Counted from the first letter of the stretch, positions 199 to 7,843 are shown. The stretch is DNA of 30,088 nucleotides from an uncultured archaeon (GCA_964347045.1 CAYFXC010000022.1:1-30088), one strand, 5' to 3'. The notes: generated by a model from the letters alone, not told the origin. A program made the numbers and translations.

Positions 199-1377
199 GT
201 GGTGGATGCATCGTTGAAGGTTCTAATGGTGGTTGAGTCACATGCTAAGCAAGCAGGCGGTGGACCAATGTATTGGTCGCAACTTAGCAAGCATCTGATT
301 CAACGGGGGCATGAAGTAATTATTCTGAGTGGCACCCCTGCGGATGGGGAATTCGCATCACCGAATACAGTTGGTCTTCTTCCGGTGCGATCGAATCTTA
401 GGAGCCGTTCAGTGTCGATGTTGTTGAGTCGATACTTGTTCAAAAGACGTTATATTTCGTTGGTTCGAGAGTTTTCACGTGAATGGGATCCTGATATCAT
501 TCATACGGTTCCACCCATCGCATCAGAGGCCGCGTTACGTTCCGGTAAAGATCTTGGTGTGCCAGTTATTGCATCCGTTTTGTCACATGTAGAAGCCCAA
601 TGGGCGCGATTGGAATCGGGGCTAGGTCGTGCACGTTTGTTCCGGTTCATGGAATCGCGGGCACTTCATGGACCATTTTCTCGGATTATTTGTTTGACTC
701 ATCGATCCGAGGAGGTCCTGGTCGAGGAAGGTGTCCCGTTAGAACGCATTGTGTATGTCCCGCATGCCGTTGATGTTACTCGATTTCACGCGAACGTGGA
801 TTCCATGTTTCGTCAACAACTGAATCTGGAGAATGACTCGATGGTGCTAGGATATGCAGGCGCGCTTACACGGGAAAAGGGCTTTGCACAATTACTCGAA
901 GCCATGAAGTGCTTGAAGTCAGTGGATAGCTTGTACTTGTTAGTTGCTGGCGATTTTTCAGAGCATCGTGAGTGGATCGATTTTGTAGAGGAGGAGGGAC
1001 TTGCAGGGATTCACTTTCTTGGGCAGATAAAACATGAGGATATGCCTGCGTTCATGGCATCCTTAGATTTGTTTGTAATTCCTTCATTTTCAGAAACTTT
1101 ACCCACAACATTGCTTGAGGCATTAGCCACTGGCACACCTGTGATGGCGACAAGAGTGGGTGGTATTACAGAATTTCTACAAACGGATTGGGGAATAACC
1201 ATAGAGTCTCCGGAAACAGCCTCTCTTGTTACCACCTTGGAACACTGGCGGGTGCGTCGTGCGGAACTTCAACAAATGGGAAAGAATGGGCAGCGCTATG
1301 TGAAAAAGCATCATAACTGGGAGCAAACTAGCGAACTTACAGAAGGAGTGTATCAATCGTGTCTGAAGAATCGGTAG
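199..1377 (+). CDS. GT4 (GT-B fold) glycosyltransferase
   Basis: N-terminal GGG motif, EKG, and the C-terminal ETLPTTLLEALATGTPV (EX7E) signature. Confidence 0.92.
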   Translation: MVDASLKVLMVVESHAKQAGGGPMYWSQLSKHLIQRGHEVIILSGTPADGEFASPNTVGLLPVRSNLRSRSVSMLLSRYLFKRRYISLVREFSREWDPDIIHTVPPIASEAALRSGKDLGVPVIASVLSHVEAQWARLESGLGRARLFRFMESRALHGPFSRIICLTHRSEEVLVEEGVPLERIVYVPHAVDVTRFHANVDSMFRQQLNLENDSMVLGYAGALTREKGFAQLLEAMKCLKSVDSLYLLVAGDFSEHREWIDFVEEEGLAGIHFLGQIKHEDMPAFMASLDLFVIPSFSETLPTTLLEALATGTPVMATRVGGITEFLQTDWGITIESPETASLVTTLEHWRVRRAELQQMGKNGQRYVKKHHNWEQTSELTEGVYQSCLKNR

Positions 1378-2993
1378 ATTCAGCCCTGCGCAGTCCAGAG
1401 GCACGATTTGCTGAAAACGTTGTTGCGGAAACCGTCACGATCGTCTTGATTCTTCTGTTTGGAATTGCGTCCACAATTCTAATTGTGCGAGGATTACCTA
1501 GAACGCCAATCTATGAATTTTACATCTTTGTTCTGGTGTTTACATGGGTAAATATCCTCATTCCCATCGGAATAATGGGCATGGATGTTGCCCTAAGAAA
1601 ACATGTTCCCGAAGCCATCAGTAATCGATTTTCGGCTTTGACACGTGGACTTGGATTAGCGATTGCGACGACCATCATTGCGAGTTTCGGAATTGTGGGT
1701 GTTGTAAATTTATTGTTGGCTTGGTTTCCGTCAAACTCTTTTGTTCCCAGTTATGTGGTGCCATTTCTCCAACTTGCCCTTTGGACGATTCCACTAACTG
1801 TTGTCAGCACTGTATTACAAGGAGCCTTCCGGGGGATGCAAGAAATGCGGTATTGCACCATAGCCATGGGACTCTATCACGGAGCCTATTTTAGTGGTCT
1901 GACAATCCTCTTTGTCTCAGGAACCATGACATTGGTGAATGTAATTTTAGTGAATTTGGCAACGTCAGGCTTAACGATTGCTTATGAAACCTGGATTTTA
2001 CGGAAGCGGATTGGGCAGTATTCGGGTGAACAAGTGAAAGAAGACTTCACAGTAACTGGTCGCTCGATGGCTTTTACGGCTGTGCAGGCTTTGTTTCTAG
2101 CGCTCTTGAGTGCCGTGTTTCTGTATGTGCCTTTATTAATAGCGAATATGTATCGATCCTCAGATGTAATTTTGGCAGGATTAGGGCTAGCGTTGAGTGT
2201 TGCAGTATGGATTCAGCAAGGATTAGCTGCACCGTTTCGCGTGTTGATGCCACGCACGGCTGGTGATGTTGCGCAACAGGCATGGTCCACGATTAAGGGA
2301 TATATGAATCAGGCGTGGAAGTTGGGTGTGCTGTTATGTGCCTTTGTGGCAGTGGTCGCGGTGTTTTATGCGGCACCAGTATTTATTGTGATGTTTGCCG
2401 CAGAAGGTATGATCGCATTACCTTTCTTTGTGTTAATGGCGGGGAGCTTTCTTGTCTATCCGCTAGTGGTGATGATGTCAGATACTTTAATTGGAGTGGG
2501 AAGGATTCGGTCAGTGCTGGTAACCAATGCCGCATGGACCACGATGGTTGTTGTTGTTTTGTGGTTCTTAACTCCGATTGGTCATGAGGTAGTTGTCGCT
2601 TTAATCTGGTTAGTGGGAATTCCCTTTTTTCTAATCTATCTTGGATTGTATCAGACCCGTTCGAAAGCCCACCTTACGTTCAGTTTCCTTCCTAAAACTG
2701 TCGGCGTGTTAGGCCTCATTGCAGTGTTGGCTTTTGGGGGATTATGGGTGGGATCATATTTTCATATGGTCTGGAGCTTAGTCGGGTTGAGTTCTTGGTT
2801 ATTCCAATTGGCTCTTATTCTAACTCTACTCCCTTTGGCAATATTTTACCTATGGGTTCTGATTCGAAGCCGAGTATTCGATCCCGACGATAGCTTGGCA
2901 TTATTACGCTTGAGTGAAGTGTTACATCCAGTATCACGACCAGTGTCTTGGCTGGTTAAAAAATTGGATTCACAAGACGCCGATCGGCAATGA
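1359..2993 (+). CDS. MOP-superfamily oligosaccharide flippase / polysaccharide biosynthesis membrane protein
   Basis: ~14 hydrophobic segments, Wzx-like LQGAFRGMQEMRY motif, flanked by GT4 genes. Confidence 0.8.
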   Translation: MSEESVDSALRSPEARFAENVVAETVTIVLILLFGIASTILIVRGLPRTPIYEFYIFVLVFTWVNILIPIGIMGMDVALRKHVPEAISNRFSALTRGLGLAIATTIIASFGIVGVVNLLLAWFPSNSFVPSYVVPFLQLALWTIPLTVVSTVLQGAFRGMQEMRYCTIAMGLYHGAYFSGLTILFVSGTMTLVNVILVNLATSGLTIAYETWILRKRIGQYSGEQVKEDFTVTGRSMAFTAVQALFLALLSAVFLYVPLLIANMYRSSDVILAGLGLALSVAVWIQQGLAAPFRVLMPRTAGDVAQQAWSTIKGYMNQAWKLGVLLCAFVAVVAVFYAAPVFIVMFAAEGMIALPFFVLMAGSFLVYPLVVMMSDTLIGVGRIRSVLVTNAAWTTMVVVVLWFLTPIGHEVVVALIWLVGIPFFLIYLGLYQTRSKAHLTFSFLPKTVGVLGLIAVLAFGGLWVGSYFHMVWSLVGLSSWLFQLALILTLLPLAIFYLWVLIRSRVFDPDDSLALLRLSEVLHPVSRPVSWLVKKLDSQDADRQ

Positions 2994-3010
2994 ATTGTCA
3001 AGGTGACCAG

Positions 3011-4195
3011 CTAGGAAAGAATCTGATAGTAGACATTTTCGAGTTTTTGTGTAGTTGGTCCACGAGTAAAGTTGTTGACTACGTGTTTTCGTCCGGCATG
3101 GCCAAAGCGTTTGCACAGTGCAGGATCTGCAATTAAACGAAGTAGTGCCTGTTTGAGGGCTTCTTCGTTCATGGGGGGCACTAAAAGGCCAGTTTTTTCG
3201 TTTTGGACGACATAGGGTATTCCACCAACGGTTGTGGCGACTACAGGTTTTTCTTGGGCCATGGCTTCCAGTTGAGCGATACCGAAGGCTTCGGATCGCG
3301 ATTGGGATGGTAATACGAAGATGTCGCTAGCTGTGTATGCATCGCGTAGACGTTGACGGGGTAAGACGCCGAGAAAGTGGACGGCGTTCAAGATTTCGAG
3401 ACTTGTGCTCATTTTGCGTAGGCTTGGTTCTAAGGGTCCGGAGCCGACGATGGCTAAGTGCACGGCTGGATTCTGTCTGTGAATCTGATGGAAAGCGCGG
3501 AGTAGGGTTTGTAGTCCTTTGTAGGGCACTAATCGTCCTACAAAGAGTAGAAGAGGATTGTTGGAACTGAACCCAAAGCTTTCCTTTGCTTGGGCGGCGG
3601 AGCGTTGGGATTTTAGAAAGTATGGATTGATGGTAGCAGGGATGACGGTGGTTTTGCTCAGATAGTCTTGTAAGAAGAGGGAAGTGTTTCGGTATATAGG
3701 AGAGGTGACAATGAGTTGTTTAGCAATATTGGCAGCTCTTTGACGGGCGTGTCTATAGGCTTGGTCCAGCCAAACATGGAAGAAGGGAGTTTTTCCTGCA
3801 ATATCACTGATGAGGGCATCAGCATGGTAGGTAATGACTAGGGGGATTTGGGTTAGTTGACTGGCTATGGCGGTGATGTCAACGGTCATGGGGGAGTTGA
3901 TATGGGCATGGAAGATGTCACAGTGCTCACGAGAAAGTGCTTGTAAGAGTCCAGGGAGAAAGGGAAAATTGAAAGGCCGAGCGACAGCACGAAATCGATG
4001 AATATGAATGCCTTGATAGTTCTCATAGGTGGGGGTTTGAGGAAGATGTGCGGTGAAGACTTTGACTTCATGGCCAGCTTCCACAAGGCCTTTGGCAAGA
4101 TTATAAGCGTAGGTTTCTAAGCCACCGATAACAGGGTAAAAGTCATGGACGACCTGCGTGATGTGTAACCGCCGGGGCATTTCCTTTTCACCCAC
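3011..4195 (-). CDS. GT4 glycosyltransferase
   Basis: FYPVIGGLE, FVGRLVPYKG, EAFGIAQLEAMA motifs. Confidence 0.93.
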   Translation of the reverse strand: MGEKEMPRRLHITQVVHDFYPVIGGLETYAYNLAKGLVEAGHEVKVFTAHLPQTPTYENYQGIHIHRFRAVARPFNFPFLPGLLQALSREHCDIFHAHINSPMTVDITAIASQLTQIPLVITYHADALISDIAGKTPFFHVWLDQAYRHARQRAANIAKQLIVTSPIYRNTSLFLQDYLSKTTVIPATINPYFLKSQRSAAQAKESFGFSSNNPLLLFVGRLVPYKGLQTLLRAFHQIHRQNPAVHLAIVGSGPLEPSLRKMSTSLEILNAVHFLGVLPRQRLRDAYTASDIFVLPSQSRSEAFGIAQLEAMAQEKPVVATTVGGIPYVVQNEKTGLLVPPMNEEALKQALLRLIADPALCKRFGHAGRKHVVNNFTRGPTTQKLENVYYQILS

Positions 4196-4201
4196 TATGA
4201 A

Positions 4202-4705
4202 TTATGGTCCTGTGACATTCATTGGGAGATGGACCCATAATCCTCTGCCTAGTGGATTGCGAATCCAAATGATTTGATCTAAGTTTGGATCGTATCGCCA
4301 TAGTTCAAAGGTCAGTCGATAATTAATGCCAGGAGTTGTCATATTGAGGGTAGCAGGGAAGCGCCATGTTCCGCCATGTGGTACGAGGCGCTCGAATTGT
4401 TGGAGCACGGGGGCCGAGGAGGGATTTGTGGCGGTCGTCATGGTGGTTTCATCGGCGAGTTTCATACGGACATACAGATACTGAACAACGCCCATGAAGT
4501 TGGAAACTTCGATGTTGAGGGTAACGTTTGTGTTCACAGTTACATTGGTGGGGTATGGTCCTGCTTGCATTGATTCGTTAAGTAGCGCAATTGAAGGGGT
4601 CTGTTCTGGAGGTGGAAGAAACCAGACGGAGATAAGAAGGGTTCCCGTGGCTAAGACAATACCGAACATGAGGATAGTAAGGATGGTTTGTGTGTATTTT
4701 CTCAT
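4202..4705 (-). CDS. DUF1616 C-terminal-like membrane-anchored beta domain protein
   Basis: One N-terminal TM helix followed by ALLNESMQAGPYPTNV...RLTFELWRY, resembling the DUF1616 extracellular part. Confidence 0.6.
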   Translation of the reverse strand: MRKYTQTILTILMFGIVLATGTLLISVWFLPPPEQTPSIALLNESMQAGPYPTNVTVNTNVTLNIEVSNFMGVVQYLYVRMKLADETTMTTATNPSSAPVLQQFERLVPHGGTWRFPATLNMTTPGINYRLTFELWRYDPNLDQIIWIRNPLGRGLWVHLPMNVTGP

Positions 4706-5325: not shown

Positions 5326-5973
5326 ATGTTGCTTCGTGAAAAGGACACCTATATTCCAGAAACCGTCAGGGGATTTATTCTTGAAGCGCTTCGGAGTCGT
5401 CGCTTCTCAAAGGTGCAAGAAGTAGTTAATGAATTGAAGAGGAAGGGTGTCCCAGAAGACGTGACAACGCGGATGATAAAAGATCTCGCCCAAGAAGGGC
5501 AGTTGCTACTCAATCTTCCGGGAGCCTCTGAAGAGACAGTAATGACTCCAGTGTCGGGTATCGTGGAATATTTGTGGAGTACACTGGCCTTGGATTTGTG
5601 GCTAACTTTGGTGTTGCTGTTCTTTGGTGTAGCGACGATTTTGCTGATTCCGGTGGAGATGTTTCCAGTCGTTGTGCTACGCTGGGTTTTTGGTGGACTC
5701 CTGTTAGTATTTGTACCAGGTTTTGCGTTTATACGGGCGCTTTTTCCCTTTGAACGCTTTATTGATAGATGGGAACGACTCGCCCTTTCATGTGGTCTAA
5801 GTATTGCACTCGCTGTATTAGTCGCCTTTGGGTTGAATTTTACACCATGGGGGATTACCTTGGTTCCTACAGCGACCGTACTCGCAGGGATTACCTTGTT
5901 AGGTATCCTAATTGCAACCTTCCGACGGGCACGAGTACTTATTGGTCCTATACCTGAAGCTAGGTCAAGATGA
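5326..5973 (+). CDS. DUF1616 N-terminal TM domain protein with a small N-terminal helical (wHTH-like) domain
   Basis: FVPGFAFIRALFP...ERLALSCGLSIA...LNFTPWGI DUF1616 motifs. Confidence 0.75.
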   Translation: MLLREKDTYIPETVRGFILEALRSRRFSKVQEVVNELKRKGVPEDVTTRMIKDLAQEGQLLLNLPGASEETVMTPVSGIVEYLWSTLALDLWLTLVLLFFGVATILLIPVEMFPVVVLRWVFGGLLLVFVPGFAFIRALFPFERFIDRWERLALSCGLSIALAVLVAFGLNFTPWGITLVPTATVLAGITLLGILIATFRRARVLIGPIPEARSR

Positions 5974-7035
5974 TTTGAGATCTTTTACAAAACAGTGGGG
6001 AGGTTTCTTGTCTTTTTCAAGGTGGTATTCGGGGCAGATGAGTGCGCCAGATGGAATGATGGCACCAGCATCGAGGATGGCCCCATCCCCCACGATTGTA
6101 TATTCTTCTAATCGAAGATCCTTACCGATGATCGCACCATGACCAATGATTGATTGATCGACAATGACACCTTCGCCGATAATGGCATCCTCAAAGATGA
6201 TAGCCCGAGAAATGCGTGAATTCGGTCCGATTATGACCCGGTTTCCAATGGTTACAGCCGGCTCAATTTTTGCTGATGGGGCAATTTTGGTGTCTTCTCC
6301 GATGTGTGGGGTTTTGTGCAATTCGGATCGGAGGGCATGGTGAGCTTCAAGAAACGATTCGGGAGTTCCGGTATCGATCCAAAAACCATGATGTTCCCAT
6401 CCACAAACGGTAGCGGATTGACAAAGATTTGGGAATACATCGTATTCAATAGAAGCCGGTTGATTCGCCGGGATGTGTTCCAATACAGCGTGATTGAGCA
6501 CATAGCAGCCTGCATTAATTAGATTACTCGGTGCTTGACCTGGGCTAGGTTTTTCGATAAAATGATGAATGTGCCCATCTGAGGTAATATCAACAACGCC
6601 AAACCGGCTTGGATCTTCAACGCGGTACAATGCAATAGTGGCAGTAGCTTTATGTTGGTGGTGATATTGAAGCAGATGGCTGTAGGGGATATCTGAGACA
6701 ATGTCACCATTTAGAACAAAAAATGGGGTTTCTTTCTCAAGATATGGTTCAGCCTGTTTGATAGCGCCTGCTGTCCCTAGGGGATGGGATTCAACAGAAA
6801 AATGTAACGTGATGCCGTAATTGGCGCCATCACCAAGTACGTTTTGAAGGTAATCATTACCGTGACCGGTGGCGAGGATAATTTCGTCAATTCCCGCGGT
6901 CCCTAACTGTTCGAGGATATAACCGATGAGTGTAGAATTGGCAAGAGGGAGAAGTTGTTTGGGGCGACTACAGGTCAATGGGCGGAGTCGTGTGCCATAT
7001 CCACCAGCAAGTATCAGTGCTTTCATCGGTGACAT
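5965..7035 (-). CDS. NDP-sugar pyrophosphorylase (mannose-1-phosphate guanylyltransferase-like) with left-handed beta-helix C-terminus
   Basis: KALILAGGYGTRLRPLT...PK, LGTAGAIK, NGD, FIEKP, INAGCY, WIDTG; hexapeptide repeats. Confidence 0.9.
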   Translation of the reverse strand: MSPMKALILAGGYGTRLRPLTCSRPKQLLPLANSTLIGYILEQLGTAGIDEIILATGHGNDYLQNVLGDGANYGITLHFSVESHPLGTAGAIKQAEPYLEKETPFFVLNGDIVSDIPYSHLLQYHHQHKATATIALYRVEDPSRFGVVDITSDGHIHHFIEKPSPGQAPSNLINAGCYVLNHAVLEHIPANQPASIEYDVFPNLCQSATVCGWEHHGFWIDTGTPESFLEAHHALRSELHKTPHIGEDTKIAPSAKIEPAVTIGNRVIIGPNSRISRAIIFEDAIIGEGVIVDQSIIGHGAIIGKDLRLEEYTIVGDGAILDAGAIIPSGALICPEYHLEKDKKPPHCFVKDLKSS

Positions 7036-7184
7036 TTCCCAGAGAATGTTCTATTATCAAGCATAAGTATTTATTTGAAAGTTGATTCTTCTTTTCTATG
7101 GTTGGGGCTGCTTGTGGGGCAAGACTTAAGAATAAAGCCCTAGCAAGGCAGTTCCAGATTCCCTTTCAAAAGGGGTAACCAATT

Positions 7185-7514
7185 ATGGCACGAGATAAAA
7201 TCTATGGTTTCCTCATTCTCCTCTTCGCGATTCTAGTTCTACTCTATTACACCTATTGGGCTCTTATCTATCCGTTCATGTTCTTCTCTATTTATCCAAC
7301 CGCTACTGCTCCACCTATCACTCACCCATGGTGGCCATTCCTCGGCTGGATTCCAGTCCTTTTGGAGCCCTATTGGGCAGTTTCAATTCCGGTGTGGCTG
7401 GCGATTGTGCTTGTACTCTTCATTGTGGCTTGGATTGGTTGGACAATGCTCACGACTCCACCCCCGATTCCCCTTGAAGAAATTGAGGAAGAAGAGGAAG
7501 CTAAAGAAGAGTAA
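7185..7514 (+). CDS. Two-TM membrane protein, DPM2 (dolichol-phosphate-mannose synthase subunit 2)-like
   Basis: D-x3-G...YYTxW-x4-PF...(W/Y)AVxIP...ML pattern as recalled for eukaryotic DPM2; acidic tail; not database-verified. Confidence 0.6.
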   Translation: MARDKIYGFLILLFAILVLLYYTYWALIYPFMFFSIYPTATAPPITHPWWPFLGWIPVLLEPYWAVSIPVWLAIVLVLFIVAWIGWTMLTTPPPIPLEEIEEEEEAKEE

Positions 7515-7537
7515 ACGGCAAACCGTCGAACATCGGC

Positions 7538-7578
7538 TGTCTCCCCATCCGGGAGACAACCCTTTCTTCTTTTTCTCT
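7538..7578 (+). terminator. Hairpin plus pyrimidine/T tract after the DPM2-like gene
   Basis: TGTCTCCC-CATCC-GGGAGACA 8-bp stem followed by CTTTCTTCTTTTTC. Confidence 0.55.
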
Positions 7579-7609: not shown

Positions 7610-7843
7610 CTAGGTTTCGGGAGGTTGATCTCCAGCTAGGACCTCACGCCATAATTCAAGGCTTTCTTCAGCATCTTTTTGATCCATTTTTTGGATGGCA
7701 TAGCCTGTGTGAACAATGACATAGTCGCCGGGTTCCAGTTTTTCTAGGAGTGCTATTGATACAGAGCGTTTTACGCCACCAAAATCAACAATGGCTGTGT
7801 TACCTTCTACGCTAATCACTTGGGCAGGTATTGCGAGACACAT
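7610..7843 (-). CDS. hypC: [NiFe]-hydrogenase maturation chaperone HypC
   Basis: MCLAIPAQV N-terminus; GDYVIVHTGYAI. Confidence 0.95.
   Translation of the reverse strand: MCLAIPAQVISVEGNTAIVDFGGVKRSVSIALLEKLEPGDYVIVHTGYAIQKMDQKDAEESLELWREVLAGDQPPET

Follow-up and report, generated by a model that had tools for sequence, protein, structure and literature searches.

The 30,088-nt stretch of DNA analysed here (the window) is contig C22 of a metagenome-assembled genome (MAG) of an uncultured archaeon. Its positions 7185..7514 (+ strand) carry a gene whose product is an archaeal member of the DPM2/PIG-P family and, judged by sequence comparison, a true homologue of eukaryotic DPM2. The gene was shown to be a near-universal, mostly single-copy core gene of Asgard archaea. 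With moderate confidence, the protein is predicted to be a non-catalytic membrane subunit of a GDP-mannose-using glycosyltransferase, and its likeliest partner is an anchor-less DPM1-like enzyme of glycosyltransferase family GT2. The source MAG comprises 2.58 Mb in 83 contigs and is 89% complete, and its nearest relatives are labelled Hermodarchaeia or Hermodarchaeota, an Asgard lineage. The open reading frame begins with ATG and encodes 109 aa plus a stop codon. The translation was identical to that quoted in an earlier sequence-only reading of the window, including the segments DKIYG...LLYYTYWALIYPF and PYWAVSIPVWLAIVLVLFIVAWIGWTML.

The homology to DPM2 was established with profiles in both directions. 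The protein matched Pfam DPM2 (PF07297) with 35.9 bits and an E of 8.9e-9, above the curated gathering cutoff of 27.3, and the match fell in two stretches, at profile positions 2-30 and 41-71, because the loop between them exceeds that of the model. In 14 control prokaryote genomes, no match rose above the Pfam DPM2 cutoff, and PF07297 was present in 51/51 close homologues according to precomputed annotation. In the opposite direction, a profile of alignment A1, which holds 28 Asgard sequences only, was scored against 1.84 billion representative proteins and gave 792 matches at E<=1e-3. Plant DPM2 proteins (clusters P0187 and P0193-P0198) were retrieved at E 5e-12 to 2e-11; NCBI and UniRef give these clusters the name 'dolichol-phosphate mannose synthase subunit 2', and they score 110-116 bits against Pfam DPM2. 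They aligned to A1 profile positions 4-75, which cover both transmembrane (TM) helices without the archaeal tail. Furthermore, hhalign of A1 with eight plant DPM2 sequences gave 98.8% probability and an E of 9.8e-17 over 77 columns spanning both TM helices, and BLASTP against the DPM2 of Primulina gave 25% identity with a pairwise E of 3e-10. Four elements, D-x3-G, YYTxW-x4-PF, A-x2-IP and IG[YW]xML, stood in register with plant DPM2 in BLASTP and hhalign and were conserved in the family. The spacing of DPM2 motifs given in the sequence-only reading was thus in agreement with real plant sequences, and its proposal of DPM2 homology was borne out by profile matches well beyond a generic likeness of TM segments.

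An accidental similarity between hydrophobic hairpins, with an open reading frame unrelated to DPM2, might account for the match, as the proteins compared are short and hydrophobic, the identity to plant DPM2 is 25% and the structure searches return generic hairpins only. This explanation is very improbable. The score lies above a curated Pfam cutoff, whereas the control genomes gave none; the reciprocal profile matches reach E 1e-11 in 1.84e9 sequences; and hhalign reaches E 1e-16 with polar and aromatic motifs aligned (D-x3-G, YYTxW, PF, IP, IG). The reciprocal and hhalign values were taken effectively to rule out chance resemblance. Moreover, independent published phylogenomics puts Asgard sequences sister to DPM2 plus PIGP. 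Structure searches with the two-helix model were uninformative: Foldseek found nothing below E 2.8, and VIA-align gave generic helical hairpins only (Z<8); the GtrB TM hairpin ranked 44 in its list. When the protein and the family profile were searched against PDB sequences, DPM2, PIG-P and the Pyrococcus furiosus dolichol-phosphate mannose (Dol-P-Man) synthase 5mlz all went unmatched. NCBIfam holds no family for the protein.

PIG-P (PF08510), a subunit of the glycosylphosphatidylinositol (GPI)-GlcNAc transferase and a paralogue of DPM2, gave a second, weak match of 18 bits (E 0.0027), under its cutoff of 39.3. According to the precomputed annotation, many archaeal members match both the DPM2 and the PIG-P models, and members of the Bathyarchaeia type match PIG-P only. 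These results accord with the phylogenomic study of Kay et al. (Nature 2025, PMC12872463), in which one Asgard-related ancestor is given for both proteins: the duplication into DPM2 and PIGP preceded the last eukaryotic common ancestor (LECA) and was 'of archaeal origin', and the supplementary table lists 'Asgard' as the sister lineage of PF07297 with the two LECA clades DPM2 and PIGP. Accordingly, the DPM2 ancestry proposed in the sequence-only reading stands, but the dual Pfam matches and the published tree make the archaeal family equally ancestral to PIG-P.

In architecture, the protein is small and consists of a single two-TM hairpin, as indicated by two hydrophobic spans in the Kyte-Doolittle plot and by an AlphaFold2 model built from a 28-sequence alignment (mean pLDDT 81.4), which contains helices at residues 2-36 and 63-90 and a short C-terminal helix at 97-108. 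The N-terminal segment MARDKIYG (7185..7208, +) has two K/R residues and one D and carries the D-x3-G element as in DPM2; D4 is nearly invariant and G8 invariant in the family, and they align with D5 and G9 of plant DPM2. TM helix 1 (residues 9-36; 7209..7292, +) contains YYTYW...PF and is modelled with pLDDT 87-97; residues 4-32 of the protein correspond to profile positions 2-30 of Pfam DPM2. It is followed by an uncharged, variable loop rich in aromatic residues and proline (residues 37-62; 7293..7370, +), where the alignment has gaps and pLDDT falls to 64-65; it is longer than in most relatives and probably extracytoplasmic. TM helix 2 (residues 63-90; 7371..7454, +) contains YWAVSIP...WIGWTML, has pLDDT 83-97 and corresponds to Pfam profile positions 41-71. 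The C-terminal tail (7455..7511, +), with the predicted helix 97-108, is acidic. By charge count, the N-terminus has two basic residues, the loop no basic residue, and the tail nine D/E and one K. Both termini of the hairpin are therefore probably cytoplasmic by the positive-inside rule, and the acidic tail, including its predicted helix, would lie in the cytoplasm too.

Column conservation drew attention to a juxtamembrane motif specific to archaea, A-W-I-G-W-T-M-L-T-T-P-P-P-x-P-L-E, at residues 82-98 (7428..7478, +). Its columns W83, I84, G85, T87, T91 and P94 are invariant or nearly so in the family alignments. The family as a whole carries this archaea-specific WIGWTMLTTPPP motif, followed by an acidic tail in most Asgard members. 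Eukaryotic DPM2 aligns only over the IG[YW]xML part of it and ends in a short basic tail. Given its conservation and its probable cytoplasmic position, the motif is an obvious candidate for a protein-binding site. The sequence-only reading had also mentioned 'regulator' labels on similar small archaeal proteins, and the NCBI name of cluster P0043 is indeed 'transcriptional regulator'. No longer versions with fused domains turned up in a search for them, which is weak evidence. In the search of representative proteins, P0067 (200 aa, from a Kariarchaeaceae MAG) and P0107 (289 aa) combine a DPM2/PIG-P-like hairpin with a C-terminal helix-hairpin-helix/DUF4332 region. Evidently, as far as domain matches tell, the tail can be replaced by a module of the nucleic-acid-binding type, which has no obvious fit with the role of a glycosyltransferase subunit.

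With the A1 profile, the gene was found in 359/400 genomes of the phylum, in 87/90 high-quality genomes and in 79/85 genera. A patchy distribution, as suggested by a six-frame search with the Pfam model (61/400), was rejected as an artefact of sensitivity. Copy number was nearly always one; genomes of family f9 have two copies, and one genome of family f17 has an inverted tandem pair. On its flanks, the latter (L078, G127:C10, 9779-10574) has two GT4 genes and one for a bifunctional phosphoglucose/phosphomannose isomerase (PGI/PMI). Asgard records with the gene include Hermod-, Thor-, Hel-, Heimdall- and Hodarchaeota, Jordarchaeum and Asgardarchaeum. In addition, several MAGs of Bathyarchaeia, Bathyarchaeota and Thermoproteota, with contigs of up to 896 kb, carry it with the same motif, which Bathyarchaeia proteins retain as AWIGWTMLTTPPPAPLE. 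The family is for this reason not a strict Asgard-plus-eukaryote signature: of the 'eukaryotic signature' suggested from the window alone, the presence in Asgard archaea and eukaryotes was upheld and the exclusivity was not. Contigs labelled as bacterial MAGs at NCBI (L117, DATKTP010000260.1, and L150, DATIYC010000035.1; labels Deferrimicrobium and Acidiferrales) also contain the archaeal gene and are probably misbinned or mislabelled; L117 has an archaeal S19 gene as well, and its contig recurs as G123:C260 in the Asgard phylum. Likewise, locus L081 is labelled Odinarchaeota, but its protein is 81% identical to the Hermodarchaeia protein.

The neighbourhood of the gene was compared in 121 loci (the window, 40 loci from a genome search and 80 from a genome collection); the set includes some duplicates, and none of its loci is phylogenetically independent of the rest. 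A gene for sugar activation lay within 3 kb of the DPM2-like gene in 64/121 loci. The source genome has approximately ten such genes per 2.58 Mb, so that about 2-3% would be expected at a random position. In the window, the neighbour is a mannose-1-phosphate guanylyltransferase-like gene resembling GMPPB (5965..7035, -), which is transcribed divergently and separated by 149 bp, as the sequence-only reading had noted. Its 356-aa product contains NTP_transferase (189.6 bits in Pfam) and hexapeptide/LbH regions; among solved structures it comes closest to human GMPPB (7d72_K, E 5e-61, over the full length), with GlmU and ST0452 far behind, and its best NCBIfam match is man1P_GTase, under the cutoff of that model.

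Different lineages had different enzymes beside the gene. The GMPPB-like nucleotidyltransferase, at 22-1600 bp, was kept in loci of the Hermodarchaeia type (L054, L055, L060, L079-L093) and was confined to such genomes. A mutase of the phosphoglucomutase/phosphomannomutase (PGM/PMM) family lay at 79-2800 bp in Thorarchaeota, the Heimdall-like family f7 and families f26, f27, f30, f31 and f33. Families f19 and f20 had a cupin protein with a mannose-6-phosphate isomerase domain (31 bits vs a cutoff of 23.6) at 0.6-2.5 kb, and f17 together with a Helarchaeota MAG had a bifunctional PGI/PMI (394 bits vs a cutoff of 295) at approximately 0.7 kb, with GT4 genes at 0.4-0.5 kb. Moreover, a divergent tandem-SIS protein stood directly upstream, at 32-79 bp, in f26 and f27. 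The link to glycosylation genes proposed from the window thus extends across lineages, but the guanylyltransferase adjacency itself belongs to the Hermodarchaeia type, and elsewhere a mutase, a phosphomannose isomerase (PMI) or a PGI/PMI takes its place. The presence of four enzymes of one short pathway beside the same gene in separate lineages is hard to attribute to inheritance alone. The neighbours with readable specificity (PMI, PGI/PMI and the GMPPB-like protein) point, by their domain matches, to the GDP-mannose route.

Other kinds of neighbourhood were observed as well. In family f10 (L061, L062), the convergent neighbour encodes a UbiA-family protein nearest to decaprenyl-phosphate phosphoribosyltransferases, which are polyprenyl-phosphate sugar transferases, and below their cutoffs. 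All Bathyarchaeia loci share a threonyl-tRNA synthetase gene, the DPM2/PIG-P-like gene and a KaiC-like ATPase gene, with a CDP-alcohol phosphatidyltransferase three genes away and no sugar genes. In L129, L131, L142, L146 and L157, this block continues with thiolase/DUF35-type genes and a class II aldolase, and the CDP-alcohol phosphatidyltransferase lies upstream, a lipid or housekeeping context.

A candidate partner was found among the six GT2 genes of the source genome (G000). The gene at C1:34209-34895 encodes 229 aa from an internal ATG and has no TM span; in the PDB it is most closely related to the catalytic domain of the Dol-P-Man synthase from P. furiosus (5mlz residues 23-223, E 3e-21), and ArnC comes next. 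By these matches it is DPM1-like, a putative Dol-P-Man synthase with the architecture of human DPM1 (type-II). Human DPM1 has no TM helices, requires DPM3 and DPM2, and its activity is enhanced by DPM2 (PMC5526996); DPM2, like its yeast homologue, is also a binding partner and stimulator of the GPI-GlcNAc transferase (PMC7728079). The locus of the anchor-less GT2 (L057, G000 C1:32385-35237) includes an adjoining 93-aa zinc-ribbon protein and a 233-aa multi-TM protein without a Pfam match, and the gene for a DNA polymerase large subunit is next. Elsewhere in the genome, at C20 ~12-13.8 kb, another NTP-transferase adjoins a second small GT2 that has no PDB relative, and at C8 ~7-13.5 kb a second sugar-nucleotide cluster contains an NTP-transferase and two PGM/PMM-family mutases. 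Close anchor-less orthologues of the candidate partner occur in only some families, and distant GT2s occur everywhere. The source genome contains one STT3/AglB, and N-glycosylation is thus present.

According to the favoured reading, the DPM2-like protein would, like DPM2 and PIG-P of the endoplasmic reticulum (ER), be without catalytic activity and would bind and stabilise or stimulate a membrane-associated glycosyltransferase that charges a lipid carrier from GDP-mannose. The likeliest partner would be the anchor-less DPM1-like polyprenol-phosphate mannose synthase at C1:34209-34895. A homologue of DPM3 was not found in the MAG, and it is therefore proposed that the WIGWTMLTTPPPxPLEE motif and the acidic tail may do the tethering that DPM3 does in animals. 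In a bolder form of this idea, the protein alone would tether an anchor-less archaeal Dol-P-Man synthase to the membrane and activate it through this motif and tail; it would be a two-component ancestor of the three-subunit eukaryotic DPM synthase and of PIG-P, present in essentially all Asgard archaea and in Bathyarchaeia. We regard this as a tentative and rather doubtful proposal. The sequence-only reading had envisaged a precursor of the multi-subunit DPM complex, of which the Asgard ancestry is retained and the multi-subunit complex stays conjectural, the DPM3 search having given nothing above cutoff.

Several results weigh against a Dol-P-Man synthase subunit. Human DPM2 binds DPM3, not DPM1, directly (PMC7728079), so that a tethering role of the tail is speculation. 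The search for DPM3 (PF08285) in the MAG gave a best E of 0.43, below cutoff and inside a 500-aa frame; for so short and divergent a protein, in a MAG of 89% completeness, its absence is not proven. PMT was undetected in the same incomplete MAG, where AglB was the sole GT-C lipid-mannose user found. Co-occurrence with GT2 genes was uninformative, since GT2 paralogues occur everywhere and the DPM2-like gene nearly everywhere. The mutase, which is the commonest neighbour, scored above the cutoff for the NCBI archaeal GlmM equivalog; its nearest solved relatives are promiscuous PMM/PGM enzymes from Pyrococcus and Sulfolobus, and its sugar specificity is therefore ambiguous. About half of the loci had no sugar gene nearby, including all Bathyarchaeia loci and those of f9, whose neighbours are aspartyl-tRNA synthetase and dehydroquinase. 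In addition, the S19/L22/S3 ribosomal cluster lay within a few kb in ~50/121 loci, and this synteny, together with the kinship of the genomes, means that inherited gene order inflates the counts. GT22 gave no match in the MAG, nor in any of the 14 control genomes, and its absence therefore shows nothing.

An alternative explanation is a PIG-P-like accessory subunit of a GT4 enzyme, rather than a subunit of a GT2 Dol-P-Man synthase. Such an enzyme might be PIG-A-like and form a GlcNAc-inositol-lipid, or be GDP-mannose-dependent and resemble Alg2, Alg11 or PimA. GT4 mannosyltransferases also use GDP-mannose, hence the synteny with mannose genes fits this explanation too, and the match of the mutase to the archaeal GlmM model counts for it as well. 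Further points in its favour are the PIG-P matches of this protein and its relatives, the two GT4 genes ~3 kb away in the window, the GT4 genes that f17 and two Helarchaeota loci have at 0.2-0.5 kb, the CDP-alcohol phosphatidyltransferase kept in Bathyarchaeia, and the binding of DPM2 itself to the GPI-GlcNAc transferase (PMC7728079). However, this protein scores twice as high with the DPM2 model as with that of PIG-P, the closeness of GT4 genes is seen in few lineages, and the nucleotidyltransferase next door resembles GMPPB and not GlmU. Moreover, searches of the 89%-complete MAG gave no match for the PIG-A-specific domain (PF08288) and a best E of 0.03, below cutoff, for PIG-C (PF06432); DPM3 was likewise unfound. 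A GT4 partner is accordingly considered unlikely.

The ribosomal neighbours raise a different explanation, in which the gene encodes a small housekeeping membrane protein without a role in glycosylation, for instance in protein export or membrane biogenesis, and the DPM2 and PIG-P functions were gained after recruitment by eukaryotes. Its status as a near-universal single-copy core gene would agree with this, as would the S19/L22/S3 synteny, the P0/P1/L1/L11 ribosomal genes that stand beside the DPM2-like gene in the window and in family f12, and the aminoacyl-tRNA synthetase neighbours in f9 and Bathyarchaeia. The C-terminal motif is strongly conserved without a eukaryotic counterpart, and some members are fused to helix-hairpin-helix/DUF4332 regions, not to glycosyltransferases. 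Against this, four sugar-activation enzymes were kept or brought beside the gene across lineages, which inherited ribosomal synteny explains poorly. Both eukaryotic descendants serve lipid-linked sugar synthesis (PMC7728079), so that an ancestral role of that kind is the simplest. A purely housekeeping role is thus judged improbable, a little more so than a GT4 partner, and a membrane subunit of a GDP-mannose-using enzyme is preferred.

Compared with eukaryotic DPM2 (PF07297), the archaeal protein has the same size class, the same two-TM hairpin, four aligned motifs and profile matches in both directions; its gene is linked to genes of GDP-mannose supply, and an anchor-less DPM1-like GT2 is present in the same genome. 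It differs from DPM2 in the longer aromatic and proline-rich loop between the helices and in the TTPPPxPLEE segment with an acidic tail, where DPM2 has a short basic (KKxx-like) tail. Furthermore, no DPM3 was detected in the archaeal MAG. Compared with PIG-P, the kinship is that of a paralogue with dual model matches, whereas the score of this protein stays under the PIG-P cutoff and the genome yielded neither the PIG-A-specific domain nor PIG-C.

The P. furiosus enzyme (5mlz) is a type-III Dol-P-Man synthase in which the GT2 domain is fused to two TM hairpins, and these hairpins were proposed as topological equivalents of DPM2 and DPM3 (Gandini et al. 2017). The 229-aa GT2 of the source genome matches its catalytic domain; in contrast, the Asgard profile does not match the 5mlz sequence with the E limit as high as 10, the enzyme does not stand out in the structure searches, and the hairpin of the source archaeon is encoded by a separate gene. 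In yeast, the functional DPM2 homologue Yil102c-A is a small hydrophobic protein that binds Dol-P-Man synthase and the GPI-GlcNAc transferase, and it is a DPM2-type protein acting without a DPM3 subunit (PMC7728079). However, yeast Dpm1 has its own TM anchor, and the likeness to Yil102c-A is one of description, not of sequence comparison.

The remaining features of the window were as follows. The intergenic region shared by the divergent DPM2-like and GMPPB-like genes (7036..7184) contains A/T-rich boxes and, ~10 nt ahead of the start codon, a purine stretch with GGGGT; the promoter-like boxes are putative, read from the sequence with a consensus scan of the bacterial type that may not be that of the host. 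Downstream, a putative terminator-like hairpin of eight pairs followed by a T-rich run (7538..7576, +) was recognised by consensus scan and from the sequence between the DPM2-like gene and the convergent HypC gene (7610-7843, -). Two GT4 glycosyltransferase genes (199-1377, +; 3011-4195, -) flank the gene for a 544-aa multi-TM protein with ~12-14 TM spans (1359-2993, +), whose sole match is a sub-threshold, MOP-like one to MatE (E 0.0025). This protein may be a divergent MOP-type lipid-sugar flippase. The 'GT4/flippase locus' of the sequence-only reading is accordingly secure in its GT4 genes, and its flippase is plausible at the level of that sub-threshold match. The arrangement of GT4 genes and 544-aa protein is kept within the genus (clusters c19 and c40-c42 in loci L054 and L055), and the block 199..4195 provides context for the DPM2-like gene, with a functional link as a candidate. 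Two other open reading frames, 4202-4705 (-) and 5326-5973 (+), each cover one half of DUF1616, complementary to that of the other (profile positions 151-287 and 6-120, respectively), but stand on opposite strands, and an unannotated 183-aa membrane protein lies between them.

Traces of the gene were also found in environmental data. In sediment metagenomes and one metatranscriptome, contigs of relatives (88-96% identity) cover only window positions 7172-7298 and 7384-7527, so that the loop and the flanks are uncovered. The metatranscriptome, a single run, contributed two read-length contigs from a relative, with 94-96% identity and confined to the two conserved coding segments. DNA carry-over is possible for these contigs, and they are no evidence of expression in the source organism.

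The homology itself is not new, since the Asgard origin of PF07297 was already published by Kay et al. (2025, PMC12872463), where the record of it amounts to one table row and one sentence. A literature search for Asgard archaea with PIG-P, DPM1 or dolichol found no paper on the archaeal protein, its distribution or its context; the distribution, the synteny, the motif and the candidate partner appear to be new. DPM2 and PIG-P are small subunits of two ER enzymes with which Dol-P-Man-dependent glycosylation and GPI-anchor synthesis begin, and the origin of such accessory subunits is part of the question of how the glycosylation system of eukaryotic endomembranes came together. The status as a core gene, the reach into Bathyarchaeia, the conserved motif and the synteny with mannose genes together lead to a testable hypothesis on the partner and the pre-eukaryotic function of the family. 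If the two-component ancestor proposed above were true, the origin of the lipid-linked sugar machinery of the ER would be directly testable in cultured Asgard archaea.

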